Part shown: positions 1-61,000 of the stretch, one piece after another
How positions within the stretch are numbered: position 1 is the stretch's first letter
Layout: every line of letters begins with the position of its first letter
DNA from: Psammoneis japonica
Lineage: Eukaryota
DNA length: 64,000 nucleotides
Direction: 5' to 3'
NCBI GenBank assembly: GCA_008632985.1
Contig: QPGO01000027.1
Coordinates: forward strand, 186,001 to 250,000
Translations under genes and position numbers: made by a program
The notes under the pieces: model-generated
Seen by the model: the letters and a program-made list of their open reading frames with translations, nothing else
What the model was told of the DNA's origin: nothing
Database searches by the model: none

Positions 1-3000
1 GGATCTCAACAAAGATTGCTGCAAAGAAGTCATCACCCCATTCATTAAAAAGGAGCTTGAAGTGGCCGTCTGACGCATGCTTTCATTGTCAAGAATAAAA
101 TGTCAGTGAAGGCAGTGTGTCTTGCTTTTGATTTGGCAACATGTTCTCCAGCTCCAGCGACAAAAGATGGCGCCACAGACAAATGTGAAAGGCTTTCAAT
201 TTCCAAGCAATTCTCTCTCCTCTTGAGCCATCAAGCTCCATTTTCTTTGTGCAGCCAGGTGGAAGATGCTGATGGTTGCACACCAGGCAGATGGCACCAA
301 TTTTTTGGCCTTTCCAACACAGCCAACCAGAACCCTGTGGCTCCCAAAACCCAAAACGCCCCAGAAAGATGATTTGATTCTCTTGAACTTGATGCTGAAT
401 GATGCCAACATTGTGTTCATGATCTGCTCTGTGCCCTCTTCCTTTGCAAGCTGTTCTCTGTTTGGTTTCTTGACAGAAGCTGTTGCTCATGATGAGTGTG
501 GGATGATTGAGTGAAAAGCTCATGCAGCATTCTCACATTTGCAATTTACATTTTTAAGACTTGATGTGTTTGGCCTGTGGCTCTTTTGTTGCTTTGTCCA
601 GAGCCAGTTTGGTCATGCCACAGACTTGTTTTGCCAACTCAAAGCCAGCTCATGCCAAGAGTTTGGTTGGCGAGACATTGCGCACCACATGGACAGCATC
701 TTTGTGCTTTGTTGGGCTTTGGAACATTGTTGCATCACCTCTGCCTGTCATGACTTTTTTTCACAAAGCAACAGGAAGGAGACATGAGTCATGATGGGTT
801 GAGAAGGTCATCCCAGAATGAACCTAAAATTCTGGGGCCAGCATGATTGGCAAATTCAGTGCAAAGTGATGAACCTTGATGGACAAATGCGCGAGCATCC
901 ACATTGTGAATTTCTTGCAGATCATGACACATGTTGTGCTTTGCACTGATTTGGAAATCATTGTGACAAATGGGGCTCAAATCATTGGTGCAAACTTCTT
1001 GCACATTGTGACTTTTGGCAAGGGACGCTGCAAAGGGCCCCACTCCCACCATGCAACCCACCACAACAGTGCCAGTGGATTCTTCTTGCCTCATGATTTG
1101 ACCCACCCATTGAGCATGCTTGTGAACAAGACAAGAGCTCCAGCACACATTGCCAAAATCCAAATCAAAAACACACCCCTCCTTCTCACTTTGCAGTGCC
1201 AGACTCCAGTGGTGCCTTGAATGTCCTGCCAACACCTCCACTTCAAATGTCTGACACATTGTGCTCATGTGGTGTGCACCTTGTTTGCTGTTCTTTTGAC
1301 TTTGGTGCTCTTGTCCAACAAGCCATTGCCAATGTGCTCAAAACACAAGAGTTGTTGTCTGAAATTGATGTGAGCCACATGAGCCACCACCCCTTTAAAT
1401 GCCCACAGGATTTCGAACATGCTGGTCAGCAAGAGGCATTTCAACACCTGTCTGTTCTGCAAATGAACCCTTGTGCCTCAATGTCATTGCATGCATGGTT
1501 GGTTCTGCCTCCATGTCATCTTGCAAAAACTTTGCAATGACATCAATGTCCTTTGTGTTGGTCAATTGTTTGAGTGACAGCATGTGCTTGCTCTTGTCCT
1601 CATGAGCAAAGACATTTTTTGTCTCGTGGTGCAATGCAACAACTTGGATGAAAGGTTGCAACACAGCTTGGCTGTGCAACATGACAGAGAACAATTGATG
1701 CCTTCTTGTGACAATGTTGCTTCTCAAACTCTCCAAAGGAAATTCTGAGATGGGGTGGCAGCAGGAAGGATTGGCAGGAACTCAAACCTGGCAAGGAGTT
1801 GTGCTGCTGTTGTCAACACAACATGATGAATCCATTGTCTTCTGTGGTGCTGGCAGGAGACAAACATGAGATGAAAATGTCCTGAGAGTTGTTTGAGTGT
1901 TGAGCATTCAAAATTGAGTGCTGTGTGTGCATGCAAGTCTGCTCAGCACCAACTGTTTTGCTTTGGCTCCCACTCATGCAACATTTTTTTTTCATTTTGC
2001 CTCCCCCCCATTCACCACATTGCTTCTCCCTCCTCCAGTCTTGGACCATTTTTTCCTTCAAAAGCCCTCCGAATGCACCATTTGAAACAGCCTCACACTC
2101 TCATTTCTTGTTGTTTCTCCATTTGTTCCATGTCTGCAAACTGCTTCCTTGCCCTCATCTCAGCCCTCTCTTTTTGTCTTCTGTGTTGCCAGCTTGTCTC
2201 TGTTTTTGACTGTTCAAAATTTTGAGAATTGGAGATGTGTCTTCAACTCATCTCATTGTTCTTCTGCAAAATGGCTGACATGGAATGCATTTTTCCTTCA
2301 TTGTTTGGCATTTGACTGAAAATGGATTGCCTCTTTGTTTTCTTGCCTTTTCCTGTCCACTGCTTTGCAACCCAAATCATTGCTTGCCCTCACCTCTCTT
2401 TTCTCCTCATGTGTCTGCCAATCCAACAGAGTGCTTGCTTTGCCCTCTTCTCATGTCACTCAGTTTTTGGGGCACACAACAATCAGCACTTCTTTTTTCA
2501 TTGCCAAAAATGCAATTTCCAAAACTTTTGTCCACCCAATTGCTTTGCTGCTGCAAATCCAAATTGCTGCTCCTTTGAGTGTTGTGCCATGTGGTTTCAG
2601 CTTCTGTGCTGGAGCTTCTTTGTGGCTTGCCGGCTGGTGTGCATTTGGTCTCACCATCTCCTGGCTGACTCGCCACGTGGTTTGCAAACACACCGGCTGT
2701 TGTCACCAGTGGCTGTCATTGCCATGCCAGCCGGGAGGTGCAGAAGCCAAAAAGTGACCACAAAACCCACAACTCAATCCAAGTCATGAGCACAAACTTG
2801 CAATGTTGTCAACAATTGTCAGTGTGTCTTGCACTGCAACTCTTTCTGTCCACATGACAAAAACTGCCTCTGGTCCTGAGATGTTTGAACACTGCAGTCA
2901 ATGAGTGTGCAAACCAAGTGCAGCATTTGAAGCTGGAGTTGTTTTGCAGAATGCCAGTGCCCACCCACGAGTGAACAACAGCATCATGATGACAACAAGG

Positions 3001-4080
3001 ATGCTCGCCATTCTGCAGCATCCTTTGCACCCAAAAGCTCTTTGCACTGCTTGTTGTCACTTGCTGTTGGCTGTCATTGATTTTTGTTGCTTTCAGGGCA
3101 TCATGACATGACAGTCAATGCGGCATGCCTGGTTTGTCATCAGATGACAGCATGGATTTCTGGAGATTTCCAGTGAGATTTGCAGAAATGACTGGGATTT
3201 CTGGAGGGTTTTCTGAAACATTTTTTTCTGATTCTCACAGAACTCCAGTGGAAAAAGAATGGGAGCTGTGTTCTTCCAGAATTTCTGTGCCTCAGAGACC
3301 GGACACATTGGAAGCTGGAAGACCCATCCAAGCGGAGAACAGCAGGAGGCAACATGGCAGATGTGTTGCAAAAAACAACTGTGCACAAAGCATCAGATGG
3401 AGTGCCAGAGTTGATGAGCTGATGGCAAAGATTGTCAAGCAGACATGGCTTTTCAGCAGATGCTGCGGCAAAACTGTTTCTTGGTGTTGGTGACAGCAGG
3501 TTCTTGACTGTCACATCTGGAGCAACTGTTTGTTGAAGATGTTTGCAATGAAAGCACATTTTTTGGGAATCTTTGTTTTGCCAGCTAGCTGCAAGGTTGA
3601 CAATGTTGACAAATGTCTCTGGCTCAACAAGGCTGGTGAAGTCATTGTGACATCAATTGCAGTTTTTCATCATTGATGGCAGCCACCGGATGCCATTCTT
3701 GCATTCACAAGAACAAGAAAAAGCTGCAAAATGGTGAAAGGACTGGCTCTGGTGTGTGGAGCATTCGTTGACAATGTCAAATGAAAGCAGCATGAGGCTG
3801 TGGACAGAATTTGATCATCAAGAAAACCTGGGTCATCAAGGAGAATTGTTGCTCTCTTTCAAATCATGCTTCTCAGTCAAATTGGACTTCATCAGGCATT
3901 GAAAGGAAAGAATGGCTCTGCTCAAAGCATGTTCCATTTTTCTCAGCATTCCAATGTTGTCAGTGATTGTCCTCATGGTGATGTGAAGCATGGTTGGACC
4001 TTTTCATCATTTTTTGAGTTGCTAATTGAGATGTTTGCACTGCTTCAGATGCATTGTCCTGACAATGACAGAGTCAGATC
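1..4080. repeat. Degenerate repeat/pseudogene block, strongly TpA- and CpG-depleted
   Basis: Almost no TA or CG dinucleotides and an excess of CA/TG. Many overlapping Cys/His/Gln-rich spurious ORFs. Normal composition resumes at about 4080. Confidence 0.7.
800..1750 (-). pseudogene. TRM5: Decayed copy of tRNA (guanine37-N1)-methyltransferase (Trm5/Met-10+ family)
   Basis: Frameshifted ORF pieces retain Trm5-like motifs: AFKGVVAHVAHINFRQQLL..IG..LLDK..K..ANK, CQTFEVEVLAG, EGCVFDLDFGNVCWSS (cf. F.LDF..VYWNSRL), MVGVGPFA..LAK, VCTNDLSP (VYANDLNP), HNVDARAF (YN.DAR.F). Tyr residues are replaced by Cys/His. Confidence 0.75.
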
Positions 4081-4669
4081 AGTCTAATAAACTGGCAAAG
4101 GACAACGCTGATCCACATTGTGATGGCACAAGGGACAAAATGCATCATAATTGGCTGACCAAATCTGTTGTGAGCTGACCAGATTGGGCCAAAACAGGGG
4201 GAAACGAGTGAGCGTCGTGCCATCAGGTGACATCTTTCCTCCAACATGCCGTGCTTTTAGAAGGCCACTGAGATGATGCAATTCAGTCAACATGACAACA
4301 GAGTTGGAGTAAGCTGGATAAACAATGAAAAAGTACAAGGAGCCAAATGTTCAAGCCATGATCTAACTTGAAATAAAACGCAAGAAAGACCCGAATATCC
4401 TTTGAGTGTTGTCGCTAGCTGTTTGCGGGCCGACGTGAAAGACGCCACTGTGAGTCCTCTCATGTGCTCTAATCGAGGGGAGAAGTGCACCGTTCCTTCC
4501 CCACAAGTGTGCCTCAACCCAACAGAAAGAAGAGCCCATCCGGTCCAGCAGTGCGTGACGCTGATTGCTATAAACCGCGGCAATGAAGGCTCACATTCGA
4601 CGGAAACTCGTACGAATCAACCAGAAAAGGTCTAGCTGCAAAAGTAAAGCAGAACAAGCGAGTCGTCGT

Positions 4670-7600
4670 TCATTTCTTGTTCGAATCTGACAGATAGTCC
4701 GAGTAAGCTCCTTTAAGTTGCTCGGTCTTGCCAAAGGCTTCCCACTCCATGTACAGGGAATAAGCACTTGTCAAGTAATTTGCGGCCCAAAACACTCCCT
4801 CTTGGCCGCTTGCAGTCGACACGCAATAAATACCAGCCCGTTCGTTTGCCAAGGCTTGGTCATTTAAGAAACCGACCCTTCTCGCAGATGCAATTGCTAA
4901 ATCAAAGCCTTGACGCACTTCGTTGAAGCCACGCCCATCGAGGACAGCTTTCTCTGCCATTAACAGATGCATAATGTGAACGCAATTGAGGTTTCCTTTG
5001 GATATCCATACCTTGACGCGACCCATTACTTTTGCAGCACGCTTTCGCCAAATCCTTTTCCCCGTGCTACTGGCAAGCGCAAACGCAGTTAGTCCCTCAA
5101 AAAGGGCAGAACGCCACACCACACTCTGCCCGAGGTTTGTCTTGGGCAAATCCGCCGTAGCCTCTACCATGGACCACGCCAAATAGTAGTCGCCAAAATA
5201 GTATGCAAGCCACATTCTTGCGGCACACGTAATGCTTCGAAGAAACGGAACATCGTTTCCGGCAGCCAGCATTGCTTCTTGCTCCATTGCCGTACCTGTG
5301 AGAACCTTGGGATCGGCGCAAGAGCCCATTAGATTCAATGCAAACTGCCACGGGACGATACTAATTTGATAATTGTATTCCAGTTCATAGTCCTTCATTT
5401 GACGGGTGTACGCTTCATAGTCGGCAACCACACGTGACAGGGGGCGCCCGGTATGCATGGCGACATCGCAGTGATAGGTTATGCAAAACATGGCAAACTC
5501 CACGTCGCCCGTCTCGAGTCCACATTCGTAGCCTTGAAGGTACGGTTTAAAGCTGAGCGGCAGCGGATCATTCCAATGTAGAACAAAGCAGTATGCAATA
5601 AAAATGGTCCGGGCCTCCATTTCCTTCAATTCCATTCGCTTATTCAGCTTTAAGCCGACTTCGGCATACACATTTCCCTTCTTTAAATCCCCGAGAACGC
5701 TCCCTGTTAAGATTCCAATCCGACAAAATGAGGGAGGCGAATACTTGCACAAGCCATACTTGACACTGCGCCGAGTCATTTTGTTAATAAGGAGAACCAT
5801 CAAATCTTGATTGGCGGCGTAAGTATATGTAAGCAGAGTGTCCATGATGCCCATCGTGGCTATCATGGTCTCGTCTTCCATCTGCGGTAAGTCAAGGAGA
5901 GCATTCGCATCATATCGGTCGAGTAGCCTTTTTGTTTTAATCATGTCTCGCAGAACTGTCAGCTTGGATACCTTAGTTGACATTTTGATTCCCAGTTCGC
6001 CCAGTACGTACAGAGAAGTATCAATTGCCTCGAGCAACTTGTTTTGTGTTCCCAAAGAGTGGAGCTGCGTCGAATACGCTCGAAGCTTGTCGAGAAACGA
6101 GAGAGAGTCTTGCGCAATCATTTCATTGATATAATCTTCCATCTCTTCGAGATGGCCTTGACAAAAGGCCGCGTCAGCGGCACTGCCAAATAAATCCAAA
6201 CAAAGTTCACGATGCGATTTCCAATATTCACTCGGCGGACCAAGGCGTCTCAGTACGGCAATGGCTGCCCTTAGGTAGGAGAGGGCGGGAGAAAAGGCCA
6301 ACCCAGCAATGGCTTTCTTGCCAGCTTTGAGATTGAGCCTAGCCAAGGTCATGCGCTTGGCAAAGGCGCTTGGCGGGACAAACTCGAGTCCACGATTCCA
6401 CAAGTCGGCCGCCACAAACACACAATTGTCGTGTCCCTCCAATATTTCACCCATGTGCAATTGCAACAAACCCTTTTGATTCTCAGATATCAAGGAGTAT
6501 GCTGCAATCTGAACATGATCGTGAGCAAAGCGAAACTGGGTGTTGGACTCAACATTTCTTTGCACGGGTTCTAGCAGTCCCTCTCGGACACACCAACTCA
6601 AGTATTTCTGCACCAAGGCCTCAATATCTTTCGTGGACGGCGCCTCCTTTTTCTCCAATTTGGATTCTCTTGTTTTCAAACCATGCACCACGACAGTCAA
6701 TATTTCCTTGTCAAACGTAGAGCCGATACACGATGCTATGCGCAAAATATCTCGCGCCTCATCTGGTAATTTGTTTTCGATTTTGTCTGCCATTAAATCT
6801 GCCACATTATCTGCCAAGGACATTTCCGATTGAATCTTGTCCGCATCAAATTGCCATGCCATTTTGGACGTGTCGTACGTCAACATGTCATCGTCATGCA
6901 AAAACATGACAAATTGTTTGACAAAGAATGCATTGCCCATCGTTTTCTTGTGAATCACCATTGCTAACTCCAACACCGTGACACCGTCCATATGTAGCAC
7001 ATCCTCCAAGAATTCTTGGATATCCTCAACAGTCAAATTAGAAACTTCAATCTTGGTGACGGGAAAAATGTTGTTGCGGTCAATCACATCAAGACAGCTC
7101 GAGAGAATGTCGGTGGCTTCATCCGACCGGTAGCATCCAATCAAGACGACGCCTCGGCTTTGACGATCAGTTGCTAGATTGAGCAAAAGATCAAGTGAGC
7201 TTTGATCAGCCCATTGCAAATCATCCAACACTACAACAACGGGATGGCCCTTGTCTGCGCACACGGAAATGGAGCGCAAAAACTTTCGCACCAAGAAATA
7301 CAAGATTTTTTTGCTTCGGCTTCCATCAAATTGTCCTCCAAGAGTTGCCCCCCCAGATTCACGGGGAGTAAAGGATGATGAATCCTTTTTCTGGTCTGCA
7401 TGCACTTTACGCATATCGAGTAGAGATTCCAAAGCCGGCCTTGGGGCATGTTCCGTGGCTTCCTTGATCTCTTCATTGAAATTTAAAAGAGATGCAATAT
7501 TGGGCACGACAGTTTGAATAGCACTTTGTTCGGCTTCACCCGCAAAGTTGGCCAGGAGCTGTTCCATGATAGCATCAAAAGATGCTCGATCGGAGGACCG

Positions 7601-8443
7601 TAAACACATGATGCGATTCACCAATAGAGAAAAGGCGTCACAAAAGGCCTTGAACGGCATGCGATGTTGCATGTCGGCCATTTCTTGATCGAATTTCCCC
7701 GAAGCAAACATTGTCCTGACATTATTTTGTGGCGTTTTTACAGAACTACGTCGATTGATCGTGCTGGCTCTCGTGTGTAAATCTCGTTGGGAAAGAAGAT
7801 TGACAAGCGCAGTCTTTCCAGTCCCAGCGAGTCCCGACACAAAGGCTGCTTCCGACAAACCAGCATCACTGTTGTTTTCATTTCCATTGGAAGATTTCTC
7901 AACTCGTTTGAGAATATTGCGTAGCGTCTGGATTTCCCCGTCTCTTCCCACGAGATGTTTGTCATCAATTTCAAGTCCCATAAAGATAGATGAGAGGGAT
8001 GTTTGCGAAAAGAGTGATGCCGATCGTGCCGGAAGAGCTTGACTCTGTCGTTGTGACGATCGTAGTCGCAGCGAACTACTGCTGCTCCGGTTCAAATTGC
8101 CGGAGGAACCGGGTTCGCTGCTACTTGATCCCGAACTTCGCTGTCGGCTCGATCCTTGATGGGACGGGGGACCGGGTAAGCTATCCAACGTCAAATTGCC
8201 CCGGCTTTCGACCGAGCCAGAACTCACATGTCGTCCCGCTAGTCCGGGCTGAGGTCGAGGCGGTAAATCCTCAAGAGAAAGACTGACGCGACGTCGTTGA
8301 GAATTGATAGCTTCTCCCGATTCTTGTCTTTGTTGAATTTCTTCCTCATCCTTCTTGACATTATTATGCAATGGAGGTGCGGCCGACTGCAACTCTTCAG
8401 ATTGACCATTTTCCAATGGAGATTCCATTGTATCATCAGTCAC
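4670..8443 (-). CDS. STAND-class AAA_16 ATPase with C-terminal helical/TPR-like region (resembles the ATPase module of bacterial multi-sensor kinases), 1257 aa
   Basis: Intact long ORF with LVGRDGEI, Walker A GLAGTGKT, SGKFDQ, Walker B VVVVLDDLQWAD, KTMGNAFFV, FRFAHDHVQ.AAY and ALANERAG...Y.EW.A.GK. Low-complexity Ser/Arg N-terminus. Confidence 0.85.
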   Translation of the reverse strand: MTDDTMESPLENGQSEELQSAAPPLHNNVKKDEEEIQQRQESGEAINSQRRRVSLSLEDLPPRPQPGLAGRHVSSGSVESRGNLTLDSLPGPPSHQGSSRQRSSGSSSSEPGSSGNLNRSSSSSLRLRSSQRQSQALPARSASLFSQTSLSSIFMGLEIDDKHLVGRDGEIQTLRNILKRVEKSSNGNENNSDAGLSEAAFVSGLAGTGKTALVNLLSQRDLHTRASTINRRSSVKTPQNNVRTMFASGKFDQEMADMQHRMPFKAFCDAFSLLVNRIMCLRSSDRASFDAIMEQLLANFAGEAEQSAIQTVVPNIASLLNFNEEIKEATEHAPRPALESLLDMRKVHADQKKDSSSFTPRESGGATLGGQFDGSRSKKILYFLVRKFLRSISVCADKGHPVVVVLDDLQWADQSSLDLLLNLATDRQSRGVVLIGCYRSDEATDILSSCLDVIDRNNIFPVTKIEVSNLTVEDIQEFLEDVLHMDGVTVLELAMVIHKKTMGNAFFVKQFVMFLHDDDMLTYDTSKMAWQFDADKIQSEMSLADNVADLMADKIENKLPDEARDILRIASCIGSTFDKEILTVVVHGLKTRESKLEKKEAPSTKDIEALVQKYLSWCVREGLLEPVQRNVESNTQFRFAHDHVQIAAYSLISENQKGLLQLHMGEILEGHDNCVFVAADLWNRGLEFVPPSAFAKRMTLARLNLKAGKKAIAGLAFSPALSYLRAAIAVLRRLGPPSEYWKSHRELCLDLFGSAADAAFCQGHLEEMEDYINEMIAQDSLSFLDKLRAYSTQLHSLGTQNKLLEAIDTSLYVLGELGIKMSTKVSKLTVLRDMIKTKRLLDRYDANALLDLPQMEDETMIATMGIMDTLLTYTYAANQDLMVLLINKMTRRSVKYGLCKYSPPSFCRIGILTGSVLGDLKKGNVYAEVGLKLNKRMELKEMEARTIFIAYCFVLHWNDPLPLSFKPYLQGYECGLETGDVEFAMFCITYHCDVAMHTGRPLSRVVADYEAYTRQMKDYELEYNYQISIVPWQFALNLMGSCADPKVLTGTAMEQEAMLAAGNDVPFLRSITCAARMWLAYYFGDYYLAWSMVEATADLPKTNLGQSVVWRSALFEGLTAFALASSTGKRIWRKRAAKVMGRVKVWISKGNLNCVHIMHLLMAEKAVLDGRGFNEVRQGFDLAIASARRVGFLNDQALANERAGIYCVSTASGQEGVFWAANYLTSAYSLYMEWEAFGKTEQLKGAYSDYLSDSNKK

Positions 8444-8659
8444 GTTCGTTGTGCCTTCTTACAAAGTTGTTTCGAACAGACACGTTAGTCGCCGCGGACA
8501 TCACTGAAGAACACAAACAGAACAAATCACAAAACAGGCACCAAATCCAAAATAGCGTACTGTATCCAAAAATTCCAAAAAGGCACCCCCACATCAAAGG
8601 CTTCGACGTCACGGAATTTTCTATGCTGTATGTTATTACCGGCACTGTATTTTGAATTT

Positions 8660-10880
8660 GTTTTCACAAATGCCGATGGCCTCAAGGGAAAAAGCTGGCA
8701 TCGCATGCTGTGGAAGCAAGATCAAATGGTGAAACTTGTGCGCAATGCCATTTCCAAGGAGAGAGTTTAGCAAAGAAGAACTTGTGCGAGAACAACTGAC
8801 CTCATGAATCCCACCAAAGTTCATCGATTGTTTAAGCAGCTGCTAAATCGAAAAAAGGCACCTCCTTCACATCATGATGCACGTTTGCAATTCCATGACA
8901 CCAAAAGACCACGGCCATCATCTGTTGTCCTCAACTTGTTTGTTTTAGTTAGAGGACAGAAAGCCAAGACAAATTCATTCAAAACTGGAAAAACAAAACA
9001 AAATTCACTCATGTGTTTGGGCTCAGTCTGTTCTGTGTTTTTGTTGGGGCATGCTTTGTCCATCTGCCGTGGAGGCAGGCCTTCTTTGTGCTGGTGCTTG
9101 CAAGTGGGCTGGAAAGCAGCTGTGCCTAAAATCAGCAACTTTTTTGCCTTTCGGCCATCGAAGTGCACTTTTGCATCTTGAGAGGGGAGATTGGCTCAAA
9201 CTGGAATGCCATGGTCACCACCAACCCCTCTTTGTTTTGGCCAGCACAGCTTTCAATTCACCAGACTTGGGCAATGGCGGCAAACCCGGGTTGTCATTGC
9301 AGCCACCAACACAACTGCCCTTGACAAAGATGGATGGAACCAAAGTGCAGTCGGTCTTCTTGCCCAGTGTGGCTTGAACTTCATTCCAGTGATTTTGTCC
9401 AAAAAAGGTCTGGCTCCACAGCATTGCAATGAATGCCCTCCTCATCCAGGTGGTCCTTGGTGCATTGACAAAAGGGGCACATGCCAAAGGATGACATGGC
9501 AATGGGTGCCAATTTGTCTTGCAAGAAAGAACCCATCTTTGTGTTTGCTGCTTCCTCATCAAAGTCACCTGCCACCATCTTGGCTGCAAACTGTTTGAAT
9601 TTTCAACCCAGCAAGTTGGAGGCAACAGCTTCAGAAAATTGGTTTGCCATTAAAGAAGACTCACTTCCTGCCAGAGGTTCACCCATCCTGCCCTTGTTGT
9701 TCATTTTGGAGCTGGCTTTGATGTGCGCATCAAGGTTGGGTCACTTCATGCCACCGAGCTCCCTAGAAGTGGAAGAATGGTCACAACATCCAGGCCTCTT
9801 GGCAGCAAAATCATCCATGTTGACTTGCAGCATGTGACTGGAGGTTTCTCGATGAGCAGAAATGATGCTGCATCACAACTGAAATCATCTGCTTGCCTCC
9901 AATGGCCACTCTGGCTCCTCTGCCAAAAGCCTGGACAAGCAAACATCCAGGAAGTGAAGCTCAAATGACTCTGAGTTGCCCGCCCAAATGACGGTGAGTG
10001 CTGCAGCCTCCCTGTCTTGTTGTGTTGACACCTCACAAGGGTTCACCACTGCAGCCCCTTCTTTTGTGTGTCTGTCAATTGTGGTCATCTTGCATGTCTC
10101 TGACAGCAACTTGCGCCACCTTTCAGCAGTGAGCACTGTGGGGACATGTGCTTTTCTGTGGGTGCTTCCAGATGAGACACACCTTCGTTGCACTGGCACA
10201 ACTGGTTGCAGAGCAAAGTGAAAGGTTCTGTGCATTTGGTGTTTTGCTGCAATGGCACTTTGCATCATTGGCCAGGTGGACCAGAAACCCCTCCGTCAGG
10301 TTGGCATTGATGTTTTGGTGTCTGAGATCTTTGATGCAAACATTTGAGTGCCTGCAGTGCTTCAGGCAGTGACAGAAATGTTTAAGAGCCTTCCTCTTCT
10401 TTTTTAAACAAACGAATGAATGAACAAAATTGGCAAAGCCAATTTTCTTCTGCCAAATGTGACAAACAAGAAATGCAAGTGGCTGAGGCAGAGCCGCTGG
10501 TTTGGATGTTTGTCCAACTATTTCGACAAACAGTGGAGGCTTCGCCATTTTGCTCTGTTGTCATTTGTGTGAGAATTTTCTGTTGCTCTTGTGCTGTTTT
10601 TCTTGGGCCTGTGGTGTGGTGTGTTGTTGGCATCTTGTTGGACTCCAATCTTGTGGTGTCCAATGTGCTCAGCTGAGAATGTTTGTGTTTGTTGTTCTCA
10701 GCTGATGACTCATGCCCAGTGGAGATCTCAGCTGCTCAGCTGAGAATGTTGTTGCTTGTTTTGCTCAGCCAGTTTCCTGTGCTCAGCTGACATCGCTCAG
10801 CGCTGAACTCCTGTCATCCATTCTGCTCAGCTGAGAATGTTGTTGTTTGTTCACGATCTTTCATGTTTCACAGGTGAAAA
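8660..10880. repeat. Degenerate repeat-derived block (TpA/CpG depleted), probable transposon remnant
   Basis: Sharp composition switch relative to the flanking genes. No recognisable intact protein. Confidence 0.6.
10665..10850. repeat. Cluster of palindromic CTCAGCTGAG(AATGTT) motifs
   Basis: Full copies of CTCAGCTGAGAATGTT start at ~10668, ~10735 and ~10826, with several partial CTCAGC(TG) copies between them. Confidence 0.75.
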
Positions 10881-11227
10881 AAGGAGAATGCCATGCAGCG
10901 TGATCTGGTGAGACTTGAAGACGAGGTGGAGGAACAGCAGTTGAAAGAAGGCCTGGAAGATGCCACCAGATGGAATGACCAAGGTCGCACCTTGAATCCG
11001 GACAATCAAAGCCGGTCTAGAAGAGTCGGAAAACGGAAACAAGAACTGGATGTGAGAAAGCACTTGATGGAACTTTTCTGCAAGACGAGCTACATCGCCA
11101 TTAAGGATTAACATTTTATTTCCAGGATAGATGTATGAGGCTATGCAGAGCACGCACGACAGAAAAGTCCAGTTTAGAATTGAAATAATGGGTCCGTGAT
11201 TACCCAACTCGCATGCAGTCTACCGTG

Positions 11228-12904: not shown

Positions 12905-12914
12905 AGAGGATATT

Positions 12915-47960: not shown

Positions 47961-48679
47961 GTGATTGCAACAGAGGGAACACGCGTTCCTGCAACGGGAA
48001 CAACTCACAACAAGCATGTCTTGGTGACAACAACACACTTCAGTGGCCATTGAAAGTGGATTGGATAATTTGGGCAACAGAGAGAGCAGTTGGAGAGATG
48101 TGGTGTCGGGAAGCAGAGAGAATGACCTGTTAAGACAGGGACAACAAATGGGAGGTTTGACGCGACTCAATGTGCCAAATGAAGCAGATGTTGTGTCAGG
48201 AAGCAGGCGCAATGCGCAAATTAACATGAGGAGACATGATGTGTTGTTTGGCATTGATCCAAATGACATTGCAATCTTCATTGGTGCACTGGATTGGCCA
48301 ACAAAGGTGCACAATTCAAAACAGTGAAACGTTGACAGAAATGCAAATGTGGGGTTGGGAATGAGCACTCAAAAATGATGCAAAGACCTGTTCAAATCAA
48401 GAGAGGACACGCGAGCAACGACAAAACCGAGAAAATCACATGCAAAGTGCGTTCATTTTGCAACCCACCTCTTTCATAAAGCGACAGGAAAGGACGGAAG
48501 TTCCAAATGAGAGGAAGCCATTGGGAAGGTAAAAAAAATGGAGGACACGGTTCTCACAGGAGCAATGGAGGGAGGAAGTGTAACTTCCAGCGGCAAGTGA
48601 GGTTGAGAAAGGACATGACAAAGAGTTGCTGATGAACCAACACAATTGTTGGATGTGTCTGTGTGGTGTCACATGAAGT

Positions 48680-49781
48680 CACCATGAGTCCTGCGGTGGC
48701 GGCTTGTTGCATGCAAAAGAACGAACATGGGATTGACAGATTCCAGGGCAGGTGGGGATCAAGTCGGTGGTGACTCCAAGAGGGATGTCTTGTGTTGGAT
48801 CGTGCACCGGCGGGGGGCAAGAAATTGATGGCATTGATGTTGACAAAGGTCATCAATGAGTGTGTTTGGCCATGTCGCAAGTTCATGATCTTCGATCATG
48901 AACTTGCCGTGGGAGGAGATTGCATGAAATTGGTTCTGCAGGAGCCAAGGAGCATGGCGTCTTCACCGGAGAAGTTCTGGGAAGAATGCAAAGAGGTGTT
49001 CAGGACCAAACTCAACCGAAAGAGGAACAATGTGCAGGACAACATTGGGAGGAGAATGACAGGCAAGCAGATGTGTGCGTGCCGTTGACTGTGTTGGAGG
49101 CGATTGTCCAACGGGATGAGTGTCGCTTCCTTTGCTTTTGTCTGTGTGGTTGCTGCTTTAGAGGGATCACTGGTGGGTTGCAAAGATTTGATAAAGGGAA
49201 GAAATGACAAGGACACATGCGCATGGTTCTTGGAAACTGTGGTGCCTGCGGTGGTGGGACAAGTGCAGTTTGGTGGAAGCACAACCAACATGCTTCAGGA
49301 ATGGCTTTCCATTTCGTCGGAGGCGTTTGCTCTGCTGGTGCACTTGAACCACTGCAACAAGGTGAAGGACATGGCAGAGAAATTGGAAAAGGAAGAAAAT
49401 GTTGCAAGGAGAAGAAAACCAACTGTGAAAGACACTGCTCCTGCAAAGCACACAGCGCAGGCGGCGGGGGAATTGGCAAAGAGGAGCCAAGGATGGAGCA
49501 AGGAGGGGATCAAGAAGCACAATGATCTGTGTCAGTGGGTGGTGAAAGACAGAGAGAACAACCAGGGATTCGGTGCATGGTTCAAGGAGAGAAGGCAAGA
49601 GAAGACAAACTTGTCTCAGGAGGAAAACAAGAAATGCAAAAGAGAGGAAAAAAGAAAGGAGAGAGAGGAAGGATGGGCGGCGCCGATGGGAGAGGACCTG
49701 CCATTGCAGGCAGTGGCTGCAGGCAACGGAGCGGCAGCAAACACCGCATTGGCCACCAACCAAACTGGTGTGCAAACGTAA
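48680..49781 (+). pseudogene. Transposon accessory ORF, right-arm copy
   Basis: Inverted copy of 30656-31591; includes SEAFALLV and GWSKEGIKK. Confidence 0.55.
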
Positions 49782-50197
49782 TTTGAAACAAACAATAAAA
49801 TCCAGACAAGCGAAAATTAAAAAAAAAATTTGCAATGCGGTTTAGATGCAAGAACGTGTGGCAATTGGGAATTTGGATTAGAAAACGAGACAGCAAAGAG
49901 ATAAAATGTAGGACGAGTTGGTGGAAAAGGAGGGTGGATTACAAGCAGCAACATTTGTGTTAAAAGAACGAGAAACCCCAAATGTCAATTGGGGTGGAGG
50001 TCAGCATCATGTGAAAAGAATGACCACACTTAAAAGTGAGAAGCGATTTGGGTTTTAGAAGCTTGTAAACTCACACAGTTCTCATGTTATGTTTAAGGAG
50101 AGAATTGGCTTGTAAGTTGACAACAATCTGGCATTAAAGTCAAGAAATGCCCAGATTGTGGCAGACGGTCAGACCCAGATTGCTGGCGTCCCAGATG

Positions 50198-53100
50198 TCA
50201 ACTGGTGTCATCATGAGTCTGGAGCACAGAGCAATCTAAAATGGACAGTGAGTGTGTTGCTGACAAGGTCAGTGCACTCAACTGTCAGCAGCATTTTCAT
50301 TGAGCTTGAGATGTGATTTTGGATCTTTTTCATGGTTTGAATTCATTCCCAGCCTGATGCCTGCAAATGCATGAATCATGGTGCTTTTTAAAGGAGCACC
50401 ATTTGGAGATTGTTGCTGTTGCCTTTTGCAAACCCAAATGAAGTGAAAGTCATGCTTGCAGCAGAGCAACTTTTAACTTGATGGCATCATGCCACAAAGT
50501 GCACTTTCTGCTTCATTTGCCTTGCTTTTCTCTCTTCCTTTTTTCTCTTGCCAGTGGACTGCATGTTTTCTTCTGACCTTAACTGGTGTCACCATGAGTC
50601 TGGAGCACAGAGCAATCTAAAATGGACAGCGAGTGTGTTGCTGACAAGGTTTGTGCACTCAACTGTCAGTGGCATTTTCATCAAGCTTGAGGTGTGATTT
50701 TGGATCTTTTTCATGGTTTGAATTCATCCCCAGCCTGATGCTTGCAAATGCATGAATTGCGGTGCTTTTTTTCACCTGTCACCTTTTCTTGTCAAAATGC
50801 AACACTTGATGCCAGAGCTGCATCAACATGTCAGGCATTGCAAAAAATTGCAGGGCATGCAGCATTTCTTTGAGTTGTTGTGAGGAGACATGTGTCCAAC
50901 TCATTGCAATTTGCAGCCTTGGTGGTGCAAAGAGAGGCAGGAACACACAACAGCATTTCTGTGTGCTTTGGTCATCTGGTGGTGGTTGCCAGTTGCTTGT
51001 GTGGCCAGCAGAAAAGATGCAGGAAATTGTCACAAGGCATCAATCATCACTTTGAGTTAAATGAGGACATGTGTGCTTGACCCGTTGCAAGTTGAGGTCT
51101 TGGTGGTGCAATGACAAGAGACCAAAACACAACTTTTTTCACTCTTTGGTTGTTGGTTGCTGGTTGCTGGTTGCTGGTTGCCGGTGGCTTGTGGGCCCAG
51201 AAATGAGGAAGACAATTTGAGCAGGGCATCCAGTGTTGCTTTGGGTTGCTGTGATGAGACACATGTTCAACCCACTGCAATTTGCAGTCTTGGTGGTGCA
51301 ATGAGAGGTCAGAAGAACTCAACATTTTGTGCACTTTGGTCATCAGTCAGTGACTGCCAGTGGCTTGTGCTGGTGGTGGTGCTGGAAACAAAGCACACAA
51401 CTGCAACAAGGATTGTTTTGGGGCATTGTGACAAGATCAATGTTTGACCCATTGCAATTTGCAGCCTTGGCAGTGCTGAGAGGCCAGAGCACTGCACTTG
51501 CTGCTGCAGTTGGTTGTGAGTTGTGGCACCAACATTGTTTTGCTGTTGCTTTCCGGTGTCCTGCATTTTGCAACAGTGTTGGGATTTGTGCTGGGTCCTG
51601 TTGCTTTTCCAGTGTCCTGTGCTCTGTGACAGCACTGGAGGTTGTGCACAAGCCAAGTCATTGTTGTTTTACCAAGGTGCTCCATCAGCAGGAGCAAGAG
51701 CAGCACAATCTGCTGTGGTGTCATTGCTGTCTGAGCGAGGTGTTCAACAATGCTGGCGCAAGCTGTGCAAGATGTTGTGGCATCAGTGCTGTTTCAGCTT
51801 CAGTGCCCTTGGCATGTCCTGTTCAGAAACACCAATTGAACAAGCATGTGACCAGCATCAGGGAGTGCCTTTTGTGCTTGTTCACCAAAAGTCAGCAGAA
51901 ACTGCCTGTTCCCTGGCTGAAATGTTGTGCAACAATCATTGTCTTGAGCATGTGCAAAAAACAAAGACCTCAAAGATGAGTCTCAACATCCTTCTTGAGT
52001 GTTTCAAGATCATTGGTGGCCTGTTGGTCTTGCTGGACAGTGGGGCCATCATGATTGGCAGCCAGAGAAACCTCAAGGAGCTCCTTTTTGACAAGCACAC
52101 ATCTGTTGATTGACTTTCTCCCAACTTGAGCTTGTTGTGGACTTGGCTGGACAGAACATGCTGAAAGAGACCATGGAAGCTCATCTTTTTGGCCTGAAGA
52201 GTGTGCCCCCCAATGGTGTCCAGCTTGCTCATTGAGCACAATTGATGGAGTGTTCAAATTGTTTGGGGTGTTTCAGCAGCGGTGGGCTCCGCTGCCGCCC
52301 TGTGTTCAGATGAGTCAACCGCTGGACAAAAGTGCAATGTTGGCTGCAACTTGCAGCATGTTGTCATGACAATTGATTTTTCCTCATCTGGTGACATGCC
52401 CCACAATGGCATCTGCCTTGCTCATCCAATGTCATGCTCAAAGTTCTTTGGTGGCTGTGAGCTCCAGACAAGTCTGCCGCCAGATGAGTTGACACAACGT
52501 CAAAACAACCCATGCAGCAAATCATGACAATGGCCAATTTTTCCTCACCTGATTTCCTTTCTTGCCTTGTCCAAGGAAGATCAGGCCCAAATGAGGAATT
52601 CCCTGCAACAGAAAACCCTGCAACCACACGAAGATTTTCACAGCCAGCTCAAAAGTGCTCTTTGGGGGTGCAGGAAAAAACAAAATTGTCATTTTTCCTT
52701 GTTTTTCCCAAGTTTTTTCCCTCATTTTCAAACACCGCGAATGCAGAAGTTTGAATTTTCTTCAGTTTTTCTTGAGAAAATGTGACAAATCTCATTTTGA
52801 GTGGCACTGGACATCTTTTATTTTGGGGGGTCGTCCCCGAGTTTGACCCAAAATTGCCGTGACATTTGAACGAGGAGGTTGCTTGCAAGTGATTGTGTTT
52901 TTGAGTGCAAAAACAGCTCTTGCTTTTCACACCCAATTGCTGATCATGCATTGAAACAAGAGTGTCAGGTGCTGCAAATGAAGCATGACAATGATGACAC
53001 TTGCCAACATTTCTCAAAAATGCAGTTTGCCGTCTACAAACTTTTCATGCATGCAAGAGCTTTGACACACAAGAAACATGAAATGAGCAAGAATTGGTGG

Positions 53101-54122
53101 ATGGGCTGCCTCAGCCACAGCAGACTTGTGGCTTGCTGTCTCACCACAGAAAATGCCATGGGACCCTGCACAAATCCCAATGCTGTTGCAAAATGCAGGA
53201 CCCTGGAAAGCAACAGCAGCAAAACAATGTTGGTGCCACAACTCACAACTGACTGCAGCATTGAGTGCAGTGCTCAGCAGCCAGGAACCAACAACCAAAG
53301 CATGAAAAAACTGTGTGTTGGCATCTTGTTGTGGCACCACCAAGACCTCAAATTGCAATGGGCAAAGCACAAACATGTCCTCACAATGACTCAAAGTGAT
53401 GATTGATGCCCTGTGACAGTTTTTTGCGTCTTTTCCAGCCCCATGAGCAACTGGCAACCACCACCAGATGACCAAAGCACACAGAAATGCTGTTGCATTC
53501 TGGCCTCTCTTTGCACCACCAAGGCTGCAAATTGCAACAGGTCAAATGCATGTCTCCTCACAACAACTCAAAGAAATGCTGCATGAACTGCAAATTTTTT
53601 GCAATGCCTGACATGTTGACATGGCTGGCATCAAGTGTTGCATTTTGACAAGAAAAGTGACAGGTAAAAGAATGAAAAAATTGATGATGATTGGGTTGTG
53701 GGTGGTGTGAGTCACACACTTTGTTGCCTCGCATGTGAAAAAAAAAATGCACCGTGATTCATTCATTTGCAGGCATCAGGCTGGAAATGAACTCAAACCA
53801 TGAAAAAGATCAAAATCGCATCTCAAGCTTGGTGAAAATGCTGCTGGCAGTTGAGTGCACAAACCTTGTCAGCAACACTTGCTGTCCATTTTAGATTGCT
53901 CTGTGCTCCAGACTCATGATGACACCAGTTGAGGTCAGAAGAAAAACATGCAGACTGCTGGGGCAAGAGAAAAAGTGAAGAGAGAAAAGCAAGACAAATG
54001 AATCAGAAAGTGTGTTTTGTGGCATGATGCCATCAAGTTGAAAGGTGCACTGTTGCAAACATGACTTCCGCTTCGTTTGGGTTTGTAAAAGGCAACAGCA
54101 ACAATCTCCAAATGGCACTCCT
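50198..54122. repeat. Second foldback structure: inverted arms ~50390-51640 and ~53120-54122, plus a ~190-bp direct duplication (50198-50389 = 50579-50770)
   Basis: ACTGGTGTCA.CATGAGTCTGGAGCACAGAGCAATCTAAAATGGACAG occurs at ~50201 and ~50583, and as its reverse complement at ~53883-53930. 50391-50510 mirrors 54004-54122 and 51500-51600 mirrors 53160-53250. Confidence 0.8.
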
Positions 54123-57100
54123 TTGCTGCAGCTCCATTGAATGAATGCAAGCGCAATGCAGCAGCAGCGCAACAGACCAGAGCAAAGTGAAATGATGTGT
54201 CTGGGGTGACCAAAGCAGCTGAGCAAAGAAGCCCCAAGTCACAGGACACATGATGAGACCAAGCAACAAAACTCCAATGCAATCACAAAAACACTTGCAC
54301 AAATGCAAAAACAAACCTCATGGCTTAAAGATGATCTGAGTGAGTTGAGAAAATGGAACAAATGGACAACAGCACAAGGCACTGCAGTGCATGTTGCCAA
54401 AGCTGTTGTGCAACAAAACATTGACGCACACCAGTGTTGTGTCCTGACTTGCAAAACAAGGACAATGAACAAACTGCACACAGCCTTGTTCACAATCATT
54501 TTTTGTCACAATTTTGTCAATGCCCAAAATCTTTGTGTCCTTGACCCTCAAACAAATCACAGGCTTAGAAGACAACAGCTCAGAGTGCACACCAAAAAAC
54601 CACTGAAACACAATGAAATGTCAAATGTTTCTCTGTGTTGATTTGCCATCAAGCTGACAGATGTGTGGTTTGTGAAGAGCTCCAGTGAGAAATCTGAACA
54701 AGCAAAACAAAGACATCAAAAATGCTGTGGGGCAAAATGGCCATCACAAGCCACAACAACAAACATGTTCCAGCCAAGAGTGAACCAAATTGTGCACAAA
54801 AAACAAACATTTGCATGATTTTTGCATGGTCCATGACTTGCAACCAAGCTTTTGCCATCAAAAGCATGGACTCGCCCAAGTGTCAATTCTTTGTAACACC
54901 AACAAGACTCACGCAAGTGTTTCAATGTCATTGGTTTTTGTGCTGTCAATGGTTTTCATTGCACTGAATGAACCACAATGCAACAGATGATTTTTGGCAA
55001 AAATGTTGAAGATTTGTGTGCATCAAATGTTTGCATGTCAATGCAAACCAGTCAATTGAGATGTTTTCTGGCAGCACAGGCATTTTGCCCACAAGGCTTC
55101 ATTGCACCAAATGTGATGTCGTGCAATCAGCATTGAGTCCGCTGAGCAATTTATGATGCACATCCCAACTGCCCACACTCTGGACATTGTTTGCCATTGG
55201 GATGCACTGCAACTGCTGTGCTGGGTTTGCACCAAACATGCTCCACAACAATCACCAACAGCTCCAACATTGAAACACACCTTTCAATGAAACAGGCATT
55301 TTGTCATTTTCTCACATTTGGTCATTCTCAGAATGTTCCAAAAGCATTTTTGAATTGCACCCAAACCACACCCGAAGTGAATCTTTGAAAAGGCCTGTCC
55401 ATGAAACACAATTTTTGACTGCACTCTGAGCAGATGAGTGCCCAACAAGTCTGCACAAACTCAATCCACCCACAGCAACAAAAACTTTGCCTGCTGTCCA
55501 TGGTCGCAGTGGCGTGCAGTGAGCATCACATGGCAAGAACAAAAAACATCAAGCACACAACACCCACAGAAGCACACACTTGCCATGTCAATGCACCCAT
55601 CCAAAACATTGTCAAGCACCAAAAAAGAATCCAGAGGCCAGTGCAGCAGGGTTGGAATGGATTTCAGAGCAGCAGCACTGTCGGTTCTTCATTTGTGCCA
55701 TGCTTTGCTCTGCAAGATGACACACAAGAAGGCATGCTGTGCAACTGTGTGGTGTTTGAAAAAAGGGGAAAAATGAAGAATTTTGATTTTTCTTGCACTT
55801 CCTTGTGTGAAGGAACACACCATCAGATTCACAGCACAGAGTTGCAAGGCAACAGTGAACTGGTGTTTTCATGACTTGAAGCTTTTCATTGACTCATTTG
55901 TTCATGAGGACAAATGTAAATTTGATCCCCAGAACAATGACCCTTGTGCCACAATGCTTTCAACTCAATGAAAATGGGAAACAAGGAGCAACCACTTGTT
56001 TGGGTGCACCCTGGCAGGTCTTGTCAGTGCAACCAAACATTTGCAAATGCGCGAGACATCATTTTGGATTTGCAAGTTTGTTCCCCAGTTGGTGACCATG
56101 CAAAATCTGTGTTTGCACATGGAAATGTCTGTTTTTGCACTTTTTTTGTTCACACAGCTGGAACACGTCAAACGCATGGCATGCCAAACATCAGAAAACA
56201 CTTTTTGGTGTTGTGCCATCCATGTTGCAGGGTGCAACTTGTGTGTGCAGGGTTGCCACAAGGTCCTCGCCCTCTTTCAGATTGTGCTCTGGAGCTTGTG
56301 TTAGAAAGAAAGACTTGCGTCATGGAGCATGTGATGATGTGTGGCACAACAGAGTGCCTGACATCACATTGGCCACCTGCAGTGGAAGTTCTGCTGACAA
56401 TTGTCACTGACTCTCCCAGTTGCAGCTCACCCAGAAGCACCCGCCACAGCTTCTTCAGCTTTTTGGTGCACTCCATCAGGAGACAAGCACACTCTCAATC
56501 TGCACAGGGTGGGATTTTTGATCCTTTTGTGTTTCCCCATGCCCAATCTAGCCACAACAACATCTGCTGGTTGTGATCCATGCCTTGGCAGAGCAGGAGC
56601 ATCTTTGACTTTCTCCCTCTGAAAAGGAGGAGCATTGTTGCATGCCAAACAATGCTGCTCTGAATGTGGATGGGACAACAAGCAGCAACGCAATTGTGAG
56701 CACCAGTGGGGACACCTGCACAAAGCATTCTCAGCATGTTGGTTGTTGTGCTTCTCTGGAAACTGGCCCAACAAATGCTCTGCCAGCACACTCCTGGCAG
56801 ATGAAGACAAACAAATGGAAAGCTGGAAATGTTTTAGAGCCAATGGGTCAATTTTGTGTGCACTGATCAAGCCTTTTGCCAGCCTCAAGTTGTCTTTGAG
56901 AATGCTGTCAACTGTGCATCCACCTGTCAAGTGCCAGAGTTGGTGCTCAACAAGGCTGTTGACTGGCCTCTTGCATGAATTTGACTGCACAGTCTGTCAT
57001 GACAAGAAAGTTTTGAAGATCTCTCAGAAAGTTGGTGTGTGGACCTCCAACCAAGCAAAAGCATCCTCCACAATTGAGGTGCTGATGCTTCCAGCTTCCA

Positions 57101-60100: not shown

Positions 60101-61000
60101 TCTCTTTCATTCCATGATGTCAGGTGACAATTTCATGTGCTGCCAGTGCCTGCTCCCCTTGTTGGCATCAACAACCACCCCCACAAACTTGTCTCCTGAG
60201 CTGTCTGTTCAGGGCAAGAGCATCCTCCAAACAGAGTTCATTTGTGAGTGCTGCTTCTCACCACCACCATTTTAAACATGTGTTTTGTAGTCTTTTTGTT
60301 GCTGCCAACTTTGACGAGGTGGAAGACAAAAATCTGGTGTGTGGCACTGTTTGGCACAGGAGGAACAAAAGTGCACCAGAATCATGCCATCTTTTGGGTG
60401 ACTTGTTTCTCAGCAACAAAGGCAACATCAAGGCAATGCTCACAGCATTTGGTCAATTGCAATGAGATTGGACAATGTGTGAGGGTCACTTCAGAAAGGT
60501 GGTGCACCACATGATGAAGTTTTTGTCGATGACAGCCAGTGTTGCCATTGTCGTGCACCAGCTTGACATCATTTCATTGCAATGCACCATGGTAAAAAGC
60601 AGATGCTGGCTGATGCAAAATTGTCTTCAGCAGTTTTTTTGTCACTCAAGCAATGGCACCCACAGCAGCATGAGACTGGCAATGATCAGCACATTTGAAC
60701 ATGCTCTCATTTTTCATCATGATGGCAAAAGCAAAACTGAACGGACACGAGCAAAAAGCAAGCACAAAGTCAACAGTTGATTGATTGATTGTGTCCCATG
60801 TGCAGCACCACTTGGCCAACTCCACAGCAAGAAACAACAAGAGAACATGTGAAAAAAATGAGAAGATGTCCTGTGATCACCACCGTGGTCAATCTGAGCA
60901 CACACACATGTTTGCTTCCAACTCTGATGGTGTTTGCATCATCATTTTCACATCATCTGTCCATTGCACCAATGCCATGCAAAGTTGCACAGCAGATTGT
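54123..61000. repeat. Old, heavily eroded repeat/pseudogene block (TpA and CpG nearly absent)
   Basis: Composition as in the other eroded blocks; contains the decayed GMC gene copy. Confidence 0.65.
58090..58490 (-). pseudogene. Decayed partial duplicate of the GMC-ABCG gene 5' end
   Basis: ANFVVTGGSSAGCAVVARLCQDLLGAK...LLDGMTQQRGIDGLIAQAANQVLEHVSKTLVAPQ aligns with ADFVIVGGGSAGCVLASRLCQDLPKAK...LPLDGTVEQWGINGLITPIANRVFERVSKALVVSQ, with an internal deletion. Confidence 0.85.

Follow-up and report, generated by a model that had tools for sequence, protein, structure and literature searches.

The closest described counterpart of the DNA studied here comes from the rhizarian alga Bigelowiella natans. 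In mutation-accumulation lines of this organism, two integrated viral regions account for 231 of 302 single-nucleotide mutations; with a single exception, the 231 were A to G or T to C changes, and every one of those changes was located at a TpA dinucleotide (bioRxiv 10.64898/2026.01.13.699255). The rate, about 1000 times the background, was reached only in some lines, and an adenine deaminase was proposed as the agent, with an ADAT2-like protein offered as the candidate (Mettrop et al., bioRxiv 10.64898/2026.01.13.699255). The text of the preprint mentions neither diatoms nor flanking context. Here, we analyze a 64,000-nucleotide stretch of Psammoneis japonica DNA (contig QPGO01000027.1 of assembly GCA_008632985.1, positions 186,001 to 250,000 of the forward strand; hereafter the window), in which transposons and other non-genic blocks have lost most or nearly all of their TA dinucleotides while the genes between them have not. 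The pattern very probably reflects a DNA-level, TpA-specific hypermutation of silenced non-genic DNA that is of the same kind as the B. natans process. An earlier note on this DNA knew of no description of such a system, a statement that the preprint overturns. What the window adds is another major lineage, a saturated form of the process, transposons and a duplicated segment as targets, and information on timing, sequence context, and the relation to CpG decay.

In the nucleocytoplasmic large DNA virus (NCLDV) and virophage DNA of B. natans, as in the window, the change is almost exclusively from T/A to C/G, affects only TpA, and gives TpG or CpA depending on the strand; in both cases it is confined to particular non-host or silent regions. 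The differences lie in host, extent, and targets. The B. natans host is a rhizarian, whereas the host here is probably a stramenopile (diatom). The observed/expected ratio (o/e) of TA falls to 0.00–0.05 across tens of kilobases of the window, against a rho of 0.45 for the B. natans NCLDV region. The targets in the window are a long terminal repeat (LTR) retrotransposon, a miniature inverted-repeat transposable element (MITE), a foldback element, and an inverted duplication, in contrast to the integrated viral DNA of B. natans. CpG decay co-occurs with TA loss here, unlike in B. natans as described in the accessible text, and a flank hierarchy can be measured that this text does not give. Conversely, the B. 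natans changes were seen in real time, whereas those of the window are known from sequence comparison alone.

Other known systems share fewer features with the window. Fungal repeat-induced point mutation (RIP), known from Neurospora and other fungi, likewise makes saturating, dinucleotide-specific transitions on both strands of chromosomal repeat copies, with sharp limits and inactivation of the elements. It converts C to T, mainly CpA to TpA, and leaves AT-rich DNA with stop codons. The chemistry and direction here are the opposite: TA is destroyed, the GC content at first rises (56.5% in the copia element described below), and no stops are created. APOBEC3, acting on cDNA, and ADAR, acting on double-stranded RNA, also make clustered transitions with a neighbor-base preference in selfish elements, but they act with strand bias on single-stranded cDNA or RNA before integration; the changes here post-date integration, affect both strands, and extend to DNA other than retroelements. 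In dinoflagellates, which belong to the same Stramenopiles–Alveolata–Rhizaria (SAR) grouping, 5-hydroxymethyluracil (5hmU) chemically targets repeats, and the thymine of TpA is a preferred site; the accessible sections of that study treat it as an epigenetic mark and report no hypermutation (PMC11572971). TpA editing might be tied mechanistically to such base modification at TpA in repeats. As for diatoms, transposon methylation in Phaeodactylum is attributed to DNMT5a, and diatom DNMT4 is described as a relative of fungal RID whose function is not known (PMC9998398). Full-text literature searches yielded the B. natans preprint as the only relevant work and nothing on loss or hypermutation of TpA in a diatom.

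Across the entire window, the o/e is 0.21 for TA, 0.57 for CG, 1.54 for CA, and 1.57 for TG. The TA deficit is concentrated in four blocks, where 1-kb bins have a TA o/e of 0.00–0.28, versus 0.33–0.76 in the gene blocks. When pooled, the depleted DNA (35,903 bp) has an o/e of 0.05 for TA, 0.33 for CG, and 1.76 for CA/TG, as compared with 0.58, 0.94, and 1.19 in the gene blocks (16,704 bp); AT, AA, and the remaining dinucleotides stay near normal where the TA o/e is 0.05. Block limits were taken from the positions of all 917 TA in the window, and the TA expected in each block was computed from the gene-block o/e of 0.58. Block 1 (1–4022) extends past the window start and holds 7 TA against 171 expected (TA o/e 0.00–0.07, CG o/e 0.06–0.18). 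Block 2 (8649–11017), without a recognizable domain, holds 10 TA against 79 (TA o/e about 0.05, CG o/e 0.18–0.25). Block 3 (14142–23836), with 73 TA against 283, consists of an older depleted flank carrying an inserted copia element. Block 4 (30481–61121) holds 136 TA against 1241 (TA o/e 0.01–0.25), and its CG o/e is about 0.5 from 30 to 50 kb and about 0.1 from 50 to 61 kb. At the block edges, the transition is complete within about 100–200 bp, and the longest run without TA measures 2190 bp (1396–3586). The hypermutation is thus restricted to non-genic blocks that lie beside genes with normal TA. The binned TA and CG ratios and the TA positions agree with the strong depletion, normal genes, and sharp boundaries reported in the earlier note, whose block coordinates were close to these limits.

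The direction of change was read from the copia element, a Ty1/copia LTR retrotransposon on the plus strand (15792–23063) that has TG..CA termini and is flanked by TGTGC, its 5-bp target duplication. Its polyprotein remnant lies in three frames (17007–21209, 21190–22245, and 22247–22756, plus strand), as seen by alignment to full-length relatives, and contains an RVT_2 domain (21136–22362, plus strand; Pfam, E 4e-28). For the reverse transcriptase (RT), we took the 150 best representatives from a search with the RT open reading frame (ORF). The overlap was at least 250 residues for 86 of them; two Tyr-poor homologues were set aside, and the remaining 84 defined 130 columns in which at least 60% of the homologues agree. 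At the 11 conserved Tyr columns, the window copy has Tyr in three, His (CAC) in four, Cys (TGC or TGT) in three, and Phe in one. The remaining conserved residues are retained in 108 of 119 columns (Fisher p = 6e-6 versus Tyr), including five of five His columns. The replacement of copia Tyr by Cys or His noted earlier is therefore borne out column by column. The same trend extends over the whole polyprotein. Against the full-length relative P0121 (1809 aligned residues, 53% identity), homologue Tyr corresponds in the window to Cys 18 times, His 15, Tyr 11, and Phe 8, with no case of a window Tyr opposite a homologue Cys or His; nine further relatives reproduce this pattern. At the DNA level, comparison with L001, the closest TA-normal relative (69.6% identity over 4159 bp), gives 105 sites where the relative has TA and the window CA or TG, and two of the reverse. 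Over 12 TA-normal relatives, these counts are 49–140 and 0–6, respectively. The same comparison for CG against L001 is roughly symmetric (80 against 57). Collectively, the RT columns, the polyprotein, and the DNA polarity establish TA as the ancestral state and place the loss in the window copy instead of the whole copia family; the possibility that the family already carried Cys or His at these sites is contradicted by relatives that have TA where the window has CA or TG. The polyprotein alignments contain zero to two stops over their full length, TA having been lost and not gained, and the Tyr loss persists in this pseudogenized, frameshifted copy.

The two LTRs, 276 bp each (15792–16067 and 22788–23063, plus strand), date the changes relative to integration. 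The pair differs at 14 sites, every one a transition: three doubles with CA in one LTR and TG in the other, three exchanges between TA and CA/TG, four between CG and CA/TG, and one other. Thus, 13 of the 14 sites are interconversions among TA, CG, CA, and TG, and since an insertion starts out with two identical LTRs, RNA or cDNA editing is ruled out as the source of these differences. Within the same element, a 163-bp tandem duplication (97.5% identical) occupies positions 21023–21348, where the polyprotein first changes frame. Its four differences comprise three between CG and CA/TG and one between TA and CA/TG.

A longer comparison is provided by an inverted duplication in block 4. Arm A, 9.7 kb long, lies on the minus strand (30054–39814) and arm B on the plus strand (41819–50197), with 90.6% identity over 8354 aligned columns. 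The arms are separated by a spacer (39815–41818) that is not duplicated in the window and has a TA o/e of 0.06. They differ by 660 transitions and 129 transversions (789 in total). At 161 dinucleotides, one arm has CA and the other TG; placing the same 660 transitions at random 1000 times gave a mean of 10.5 such doubles and a maximum of 20. Each double is a single ancestral TA (or CG) that mutated independently in the two copies, on opposite strands. To separate the two origins, the CG classes were counted: 125 CG shared by both arms and 171 CG opposite CA or TG correspond to a loss per copy of about 0.41, which predicts a CpG origin for only about 29 of the 161 doubles. The remaining doubles, about 132, imply about 264 TA gone from both arms; a further 42 are gone from one arm, and 29 are retained. 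The ancestral segment would then have held about 335 TA in 8354 bp, or 4.0% of its dinucleotides. This value matches the 3.95% of the gene blocks today; the segment was therefore TA-normal when it duplicated, and each copy then lost about 93% of its TA. Outside the TA and CG classes, the arms differ by 122 transitions and 128 transversions, about 3%, so that background divergence per copy is about 1.5% versus a TA loss of about 93%. Smaller repeat pairs show the same classes of difference as the arms. Taken with the LTR pair, this comparison shows that TA is lost at the DNA level, after integration or duplication, and the polarized comparisons, the LTRs, and the sister copies all uphold the earlier description of TA turning to CA or TG on both strands of DNA.

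Depletion does not extend evenly to the ends of the arms. The outer 350–480 bp of both arms retain many TA, which weakens the depletion observation there. At 30054–30539 and 49715–50300, there are seven to nine TA per 184–300 aligned columns, mainly in TAA, TTA, and TAG contexts; the island at the outer end of arm B has erased DNA on either side. These islands still carry some differences between TA and CA/TG. The outer parts of the arms also have mirrored GC and AT skews, −0.27/−0.20 at 30000–32000 and +0.29/+0.24 at 48000–50000, which mark a purine-rich strand inherited via the duplication; a strand-symmetric TA process does not account for these skews.

The TpA process is strand-symmetric and has a clear flank hierarchy. 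The informative sites of the arms carry CA 76 times and TG 85 times, and the 18 Cys and 15 His outcomes in the copia polyprotein likewise indicate that both strands are affected equally. Along the inverted repeat, CA and TG outcomes do not form tracts (runs test z = −0.83, not significant), leaving a processive one-strand mechanism unsupported. Survival of TA in each NTAN context, taken in the saturated blocks relative to the gene blocks, is lowest for ATAT (0; 0 versus 82 counts), ATAC (0), ATAG (0.03), CTAC (0.04), and GTAC (0.054), followed by ATAA (0.07), CTAG (0.113), CTAA (0.15), and GTAA (0.16), and reaches 0.62 for TTAA. The values for mixed contexts are approximated reasonably well by a model in which the strands mutate independently, each at a rate that depends on which base follows the A on its 3′ side (T > C > G >> A). 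Where copies are only partly mutated, ATAT is lost first, and in the window copia all ATAN contexts are lost first.

CpG decay accompanies TA loss in three of the four blocks, a point little stressed in the earlier note. It is uneven, with a CG o/e of 0.02–0.25 at 1–4, 9–11, and 50–61 kb and about 0.5 at 30–50 kb. The younger elements reveal the order of decay. A 444-bp MITE-like insertion with terminal inverted repeats, present in arm A only (32894–33337), has a TA o/e of 0.17 yet a CG o/e of 1.06, which marks it as younger. The copia element has a TA o/e of 0.19 and a CG o/e of 0.89. Both have lost much of their TA with CG still near normal, and the oldest-looking blocks have lost both. A foldback element with long terminal inverted repeats and sub-repeats of about 180 bp (50198–54124) has a TA o/e of 0.04 and a CG o/e of 0.13. 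CpG decay is, therefore, a second component that is separable from TA loss, and in the same DNA TA is lost roughly five times faster. Decay of methylated CpG in diatom transposons likewise yields TG and CA and is present in the same blocks (CG o/e 0.02–0.5), but it cannot remove TA, its per-copy loss in the inverted repeat is 0.41 as compared with 0.93 for TA, and the young copia and MITE-like elements, which are already TA-depleted, do not show it. As the sole cause of the pattern, methylated-CpG decay is contradicted by the ratios of these two elements. The distinction from CpG decay drawn earlier, and the opposition to fungal RIP, both hold.

Reads and related elements extend the comparison beyond the assembly. 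Four read runs cover the window; they belong to a single sample and study, are probably the source of the assembly, and were compared as contigs. An 18,879-nt contig of run X1 spans window positions 1–10273 (block 1 and most of block 2) with seven differing letters and two gaps. In depleted single-copy DNA, window and read contigs differ at eight sites, six of them between TA and CA/TG and two between CG and CA/TG; the sole difference inside a gene belongs to neither class. These differences look like allelic variation, produced by a process that either continues today or ended recently. From 15.3 to 20 kb, 9187 contigs of run X1 map with at least 90% likeness, and the copia family is hence highly repeated. 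The contigs of run X2 cover the gene blocks only, and this gap over the depleted blocks was not used as evidence of silence.

Among database homologues of the copia RT, three unnamed metagenome proteins have Cys or His at conserved Tyr columns: P0156 (9 of 9), P0136 (8 of 10), and P0158 (5 of 9). In P0158, five consecutive Tyr are replaced by Cys and none by His; in contrast to the window, this may reflect a one-strand tract. Among the 80 metagenome loci retained, which are the best tblastn matches, a selection that disfavors mutated copies, four of 79 loci with a related copia RT carry the signature. Their TA o/e is 0.02 (L079) or 0.31–0.33 (L035, L051, and L054), whereas the other 75 range from 0.43 to 0.94. 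We computed a polarity index that sets sites with TA in the relative and CA or TG in the locus against the reverse. It reaches 1.00, 0.89, 0.85, and 0.83 for L079, L035, L051, and L054, respectively, and 0.26–0.70 (median 0.49) for the rest. Most hosts of related copia elements are thus without TA erasure. In L017 and L059, the CG index is 0.95–0.96 and the CG o/e about 0.2, with ordinary TA. More generally, six loci (L010, L007, L059, L017, L044, and L052) combine a CpG o/e of 0.10–0.24 with a TA o/e of 0.43–0.57; their hosts seem to methylate and decay element CpG without erasing TA, and they serve as negative controls. That copia loci can undergo CpG decay yet keep ordinary TA shows that either process can be separated from the other and that silencing with methylation alone is insufficient for TA loss.

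The results combine into a simple scheme. At 5′-TA-3′, T:A is converted to C:G with either strand equally likely to be hit, and a TA becomes CA or TG. The process acts on integrated chromosomal copies of LTR retrotransposons, MITE and foldback elements, the duplicated segment, and old relics until TA is almost gone, taking ATAT and other ATAN sites earliest and TTAA latest; ordinary decay of presumably methylated CpG accompanies it at roughly one fifth of its speed. The agent is probably an enzyme, most plausibly a deaminase that converts adenine to hypoxanthine in a 5′-T-A context and is recruited to silent chromatin. Hypoxanthine pairs with C, and adenine deamination would be the most economical chemistry. 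The tRNA adenosine deaminases (TadA, ADAT2/3) target A34, which comes directly after the nearly universal U33, and a DNA-acting derivative of such an enzyme would thus naturally prefer a 5′ T. The process removes TAA and TAG stops together with Tyr codons and creates no stops. The loss of TAA and TAG, the replacement of Tyr by Cys or His, and the change of ATA to ATG or ACA explain the long spurious ORFs in the blocks and the failure of Pfam on most of the copia polyprotein. A more far-reaching proposal can be made tentatively: diatoms may possess a heritable enzymatic defense that edits TpA in silenced or duplicated DNA, is switched on after duplication, is homologous to the Bigelowiella process, and represents an old, SAR-wide counterpart of RIP.

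Two of the alternatives keep an active, TpA-directed or duplication-directed system and change its chemistry or its trigger. In a strictly homology-triggered, RIP-like process, duplication would be sensed and both copies mutated in a sexual or pre-meiotic stage. The arms of the inverted repeat, TA-normal at duplication and stripped of about 93% of their TA later, fit this proposal, as do the highly repeated copia family and the kinship of diatom DNMT4 enzymes with fungal RID (PMC9998398). We nonetheless find it rather doubtful. The spacer between the arms and the blocks of single read depth are equally depleted, the outer ends of the arms are duplicated but less mutated, and the main B. natans target is single-copy and mutated in asexual lines. 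The term "repeat-targeted" in the earlier note is apt in that the signature is confined to transposons and other non-genic blocks, but a homology trigger would go beyond these observations. In all, the inverted repeat points to onset after duplication, and the spacer, the single-depth blocks, and the B. natans target argue for chromatin state or foreignness as the signal. The other proposal, the main alternative as to chemistry, places the lesion on thymine. A TET/JBP-type dioxygenase would mark the T of TpA in silenced repeats as 5hmU, a further oxidized form, or a hypermodified base, and mispairing or faulty repair would then lead to C. In duplex DNA, T to C and A to G at TpA are indistinguishable, and diatoms, dinoflagellates, and chlorarachniophytes are all SAR members. 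According to the dinoflagellate study, a TET/JBP homologue makes 5hmU that is enriched on transposons and silences them, and older work cited there found it mainly in place of T in TA and TC (PMC11572971). We regard a thymine lesion as unlikely. The inverted-repeat comparison gives no sign of loss at TpC, and 5hmU itself pairs with A; 5-formyluracil is mutagenic. The occurrence of 5hmU in a diatom is likewise not known to us from any report, although no search aimed at one was made.

The remaining alternatives dispense with a dedicated DNA editor. A passive by-product of heterochromatin, such as error-prone replication or repair at weakly stacked TpA in late-replicating methylated DNA, would explain why depletion is regional, takes in the non-duplicated spacer and currently unrepeated blocks, and co-occurs with CpG decay. 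It is improbable given the loss of about 93% of TA per arm against about 1.5% background divergence, the strict dinucleotide and flank specificity, and the normal TA of most related copia loci, even at a CpG o/e of 0.1–0.25. RNA editing of element transcripts by an ADAR-like enzyme, with A converted to I preferentially after a 5′ U and the change fixed by reverse transcription, would suit the best-annotated target, a retroelement, and ADARs do favor a 5′ U, as the B. natans preprint observes. It is scarcely credible here: the LTRs of one insertion differ by the TpA signature and so were changed after integration, the inverted duplication, the MITE-like insertion, and the foldback element are affected as well, and both strands are affected to the same degree (18 Tyr to Cys against 15 Tyr to His). 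An artefact of sequencing, base calling, or polishing, or else selection against TA, is extremely improbable. Over 1–10273, the window sequence recurs in a contig assembled independently from the reads; metagenome contigs of other projects share the signature, which follows element boundaries, LTR pairs, and codons; and the changes occur in frameshifted pseudogene copies, where selection cannot account for them. Some observations do weigh against TpA-specific hypermutation of silenced DNA as we have set it out. All read runs stem from one sample, with no library type on record, which also favors an artefact. The copia interior is depleted beyond what LTR divergence predicts; either part of its loss is older than the insertion or LTR contexts mutate slowly. 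Positions 1–4022 and 8649–10273 share a read contig of uniform depth with a gene and are without present-day repetition. The sparing of TTAA, clear in the saturated blocks, is less so in partly mutated metagenome copies. Finally, a role of TpA hypermutation in genome defense is suggested solely by which sequences are affected.

The gene blocks of the window are unaffected neighbors. Between blocks 1 and 2, an AAA_16 ATPase gene (4673–8458, minus strand) has normal TA and CpG and is covered by an X2 contig. It is an intron-less, STAND-like ORF of ~1260 residues, and the rest of the protein is without a Pfam match. A second gene block (11231–14045, minus strand; normal TA) contains a MOSC gene and a queuosine-salvage gene. 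The best named homologues of the queuosine-salvage protein are from diatoms (Nitzschia, Cylindrotheca, Fistulifera, and Mayamaea; 42–45% identity), and its best unnamed match reaches 55%. On the strength of this one gene, the window is taken as diatom nuclear DNA without close relatives in the databases; a protein-atlas comparison of the ABC2 gene placed it no more narrowly than Eukaryota. Within the MOSC gene, an X2 contig leaves out an 82-nt stretch (12166–12247) that is bounded by GT..AG when read along the minus strand; it is a spliced intron, which suggests that run X2, although not recorded as such, is RNA-derived. The third gene block (23837–30480, minus strand), with normal TA and CpG, has Pfam matches to zf-Nse, an ABC2 membrane domain, and GMC oxidoreductase plus ABC_tran. 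A single open frame (27085–29742, minus strand) encodes the N- and C-terminal GMC oxidoreductase domains followed by an ABC_tran ATPase domain, and the ABC2 membrane domain is on the next downstream ORF (25609–26808, minus strand); this arrangement may represent a GMC-oxidoreductase/ABCG-type fusion or read-through across two genes. By its TA positions, the right end of the window (61122–64000) also has normal TA.

In a Pfam scan of 120 additional ORFs, the domains recognized in depleted DNA were limited to TRM5, RVT_2, and a faint PhyH/2-oxoglutarate (2OG) match, with a zf-Nse match (24963–25493) falling in the third gene block; most depleted DNA stays unannotated. The PhyH/2OG match is on a 408-residue ORF of the inverted repeat (33641–34864), for which a homologue search returned none. 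The TRM5 match corresponds to a Trm5/Tyw2 methyltransferase relic in block 1 (792–1337, minus strand) that barely reaches the PF02475 cut-off (28.2–28.6 bits versus 28); a homologue search again returned none, and its PDB match, 3a27_A, has an E-value of 0.14. The earlier report of Tyr to Cys changes in Trm5 is supported by the single Tyr/Cys column that can be checked in this weak relic. Of the proposed targets, the retroelement, the MITE, and transposons are well represented by the copia, MITE-like, and foldback elements and duplicated DNA by the inverted duplication, whereas the Trm5 evidence for host genes is thin.

Apart from the window, one preprint is the only natural record of targeted A:T to G:C editing of chromosomes; a further case in a phylogenetically distant host would show that the process is not peculiar to one alga. 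The signature can be used to scan genomes, by means of the TA o/e, CA-versus-TG doubles between sister copies, and Tyr to Cys or His replacements in element proteins. The contrast between related metagenome copia copies that have it and those that do not would be useful for finding the responsible gene, and the host group may be genetically tractable. A natural TpA-specific editor of double-stranded DNA would also be of interest for base editing. For genome annotation, TpA hypermutation accounts for the very long spurious ORFs and the unrecognizable element proteins found in the blocks.

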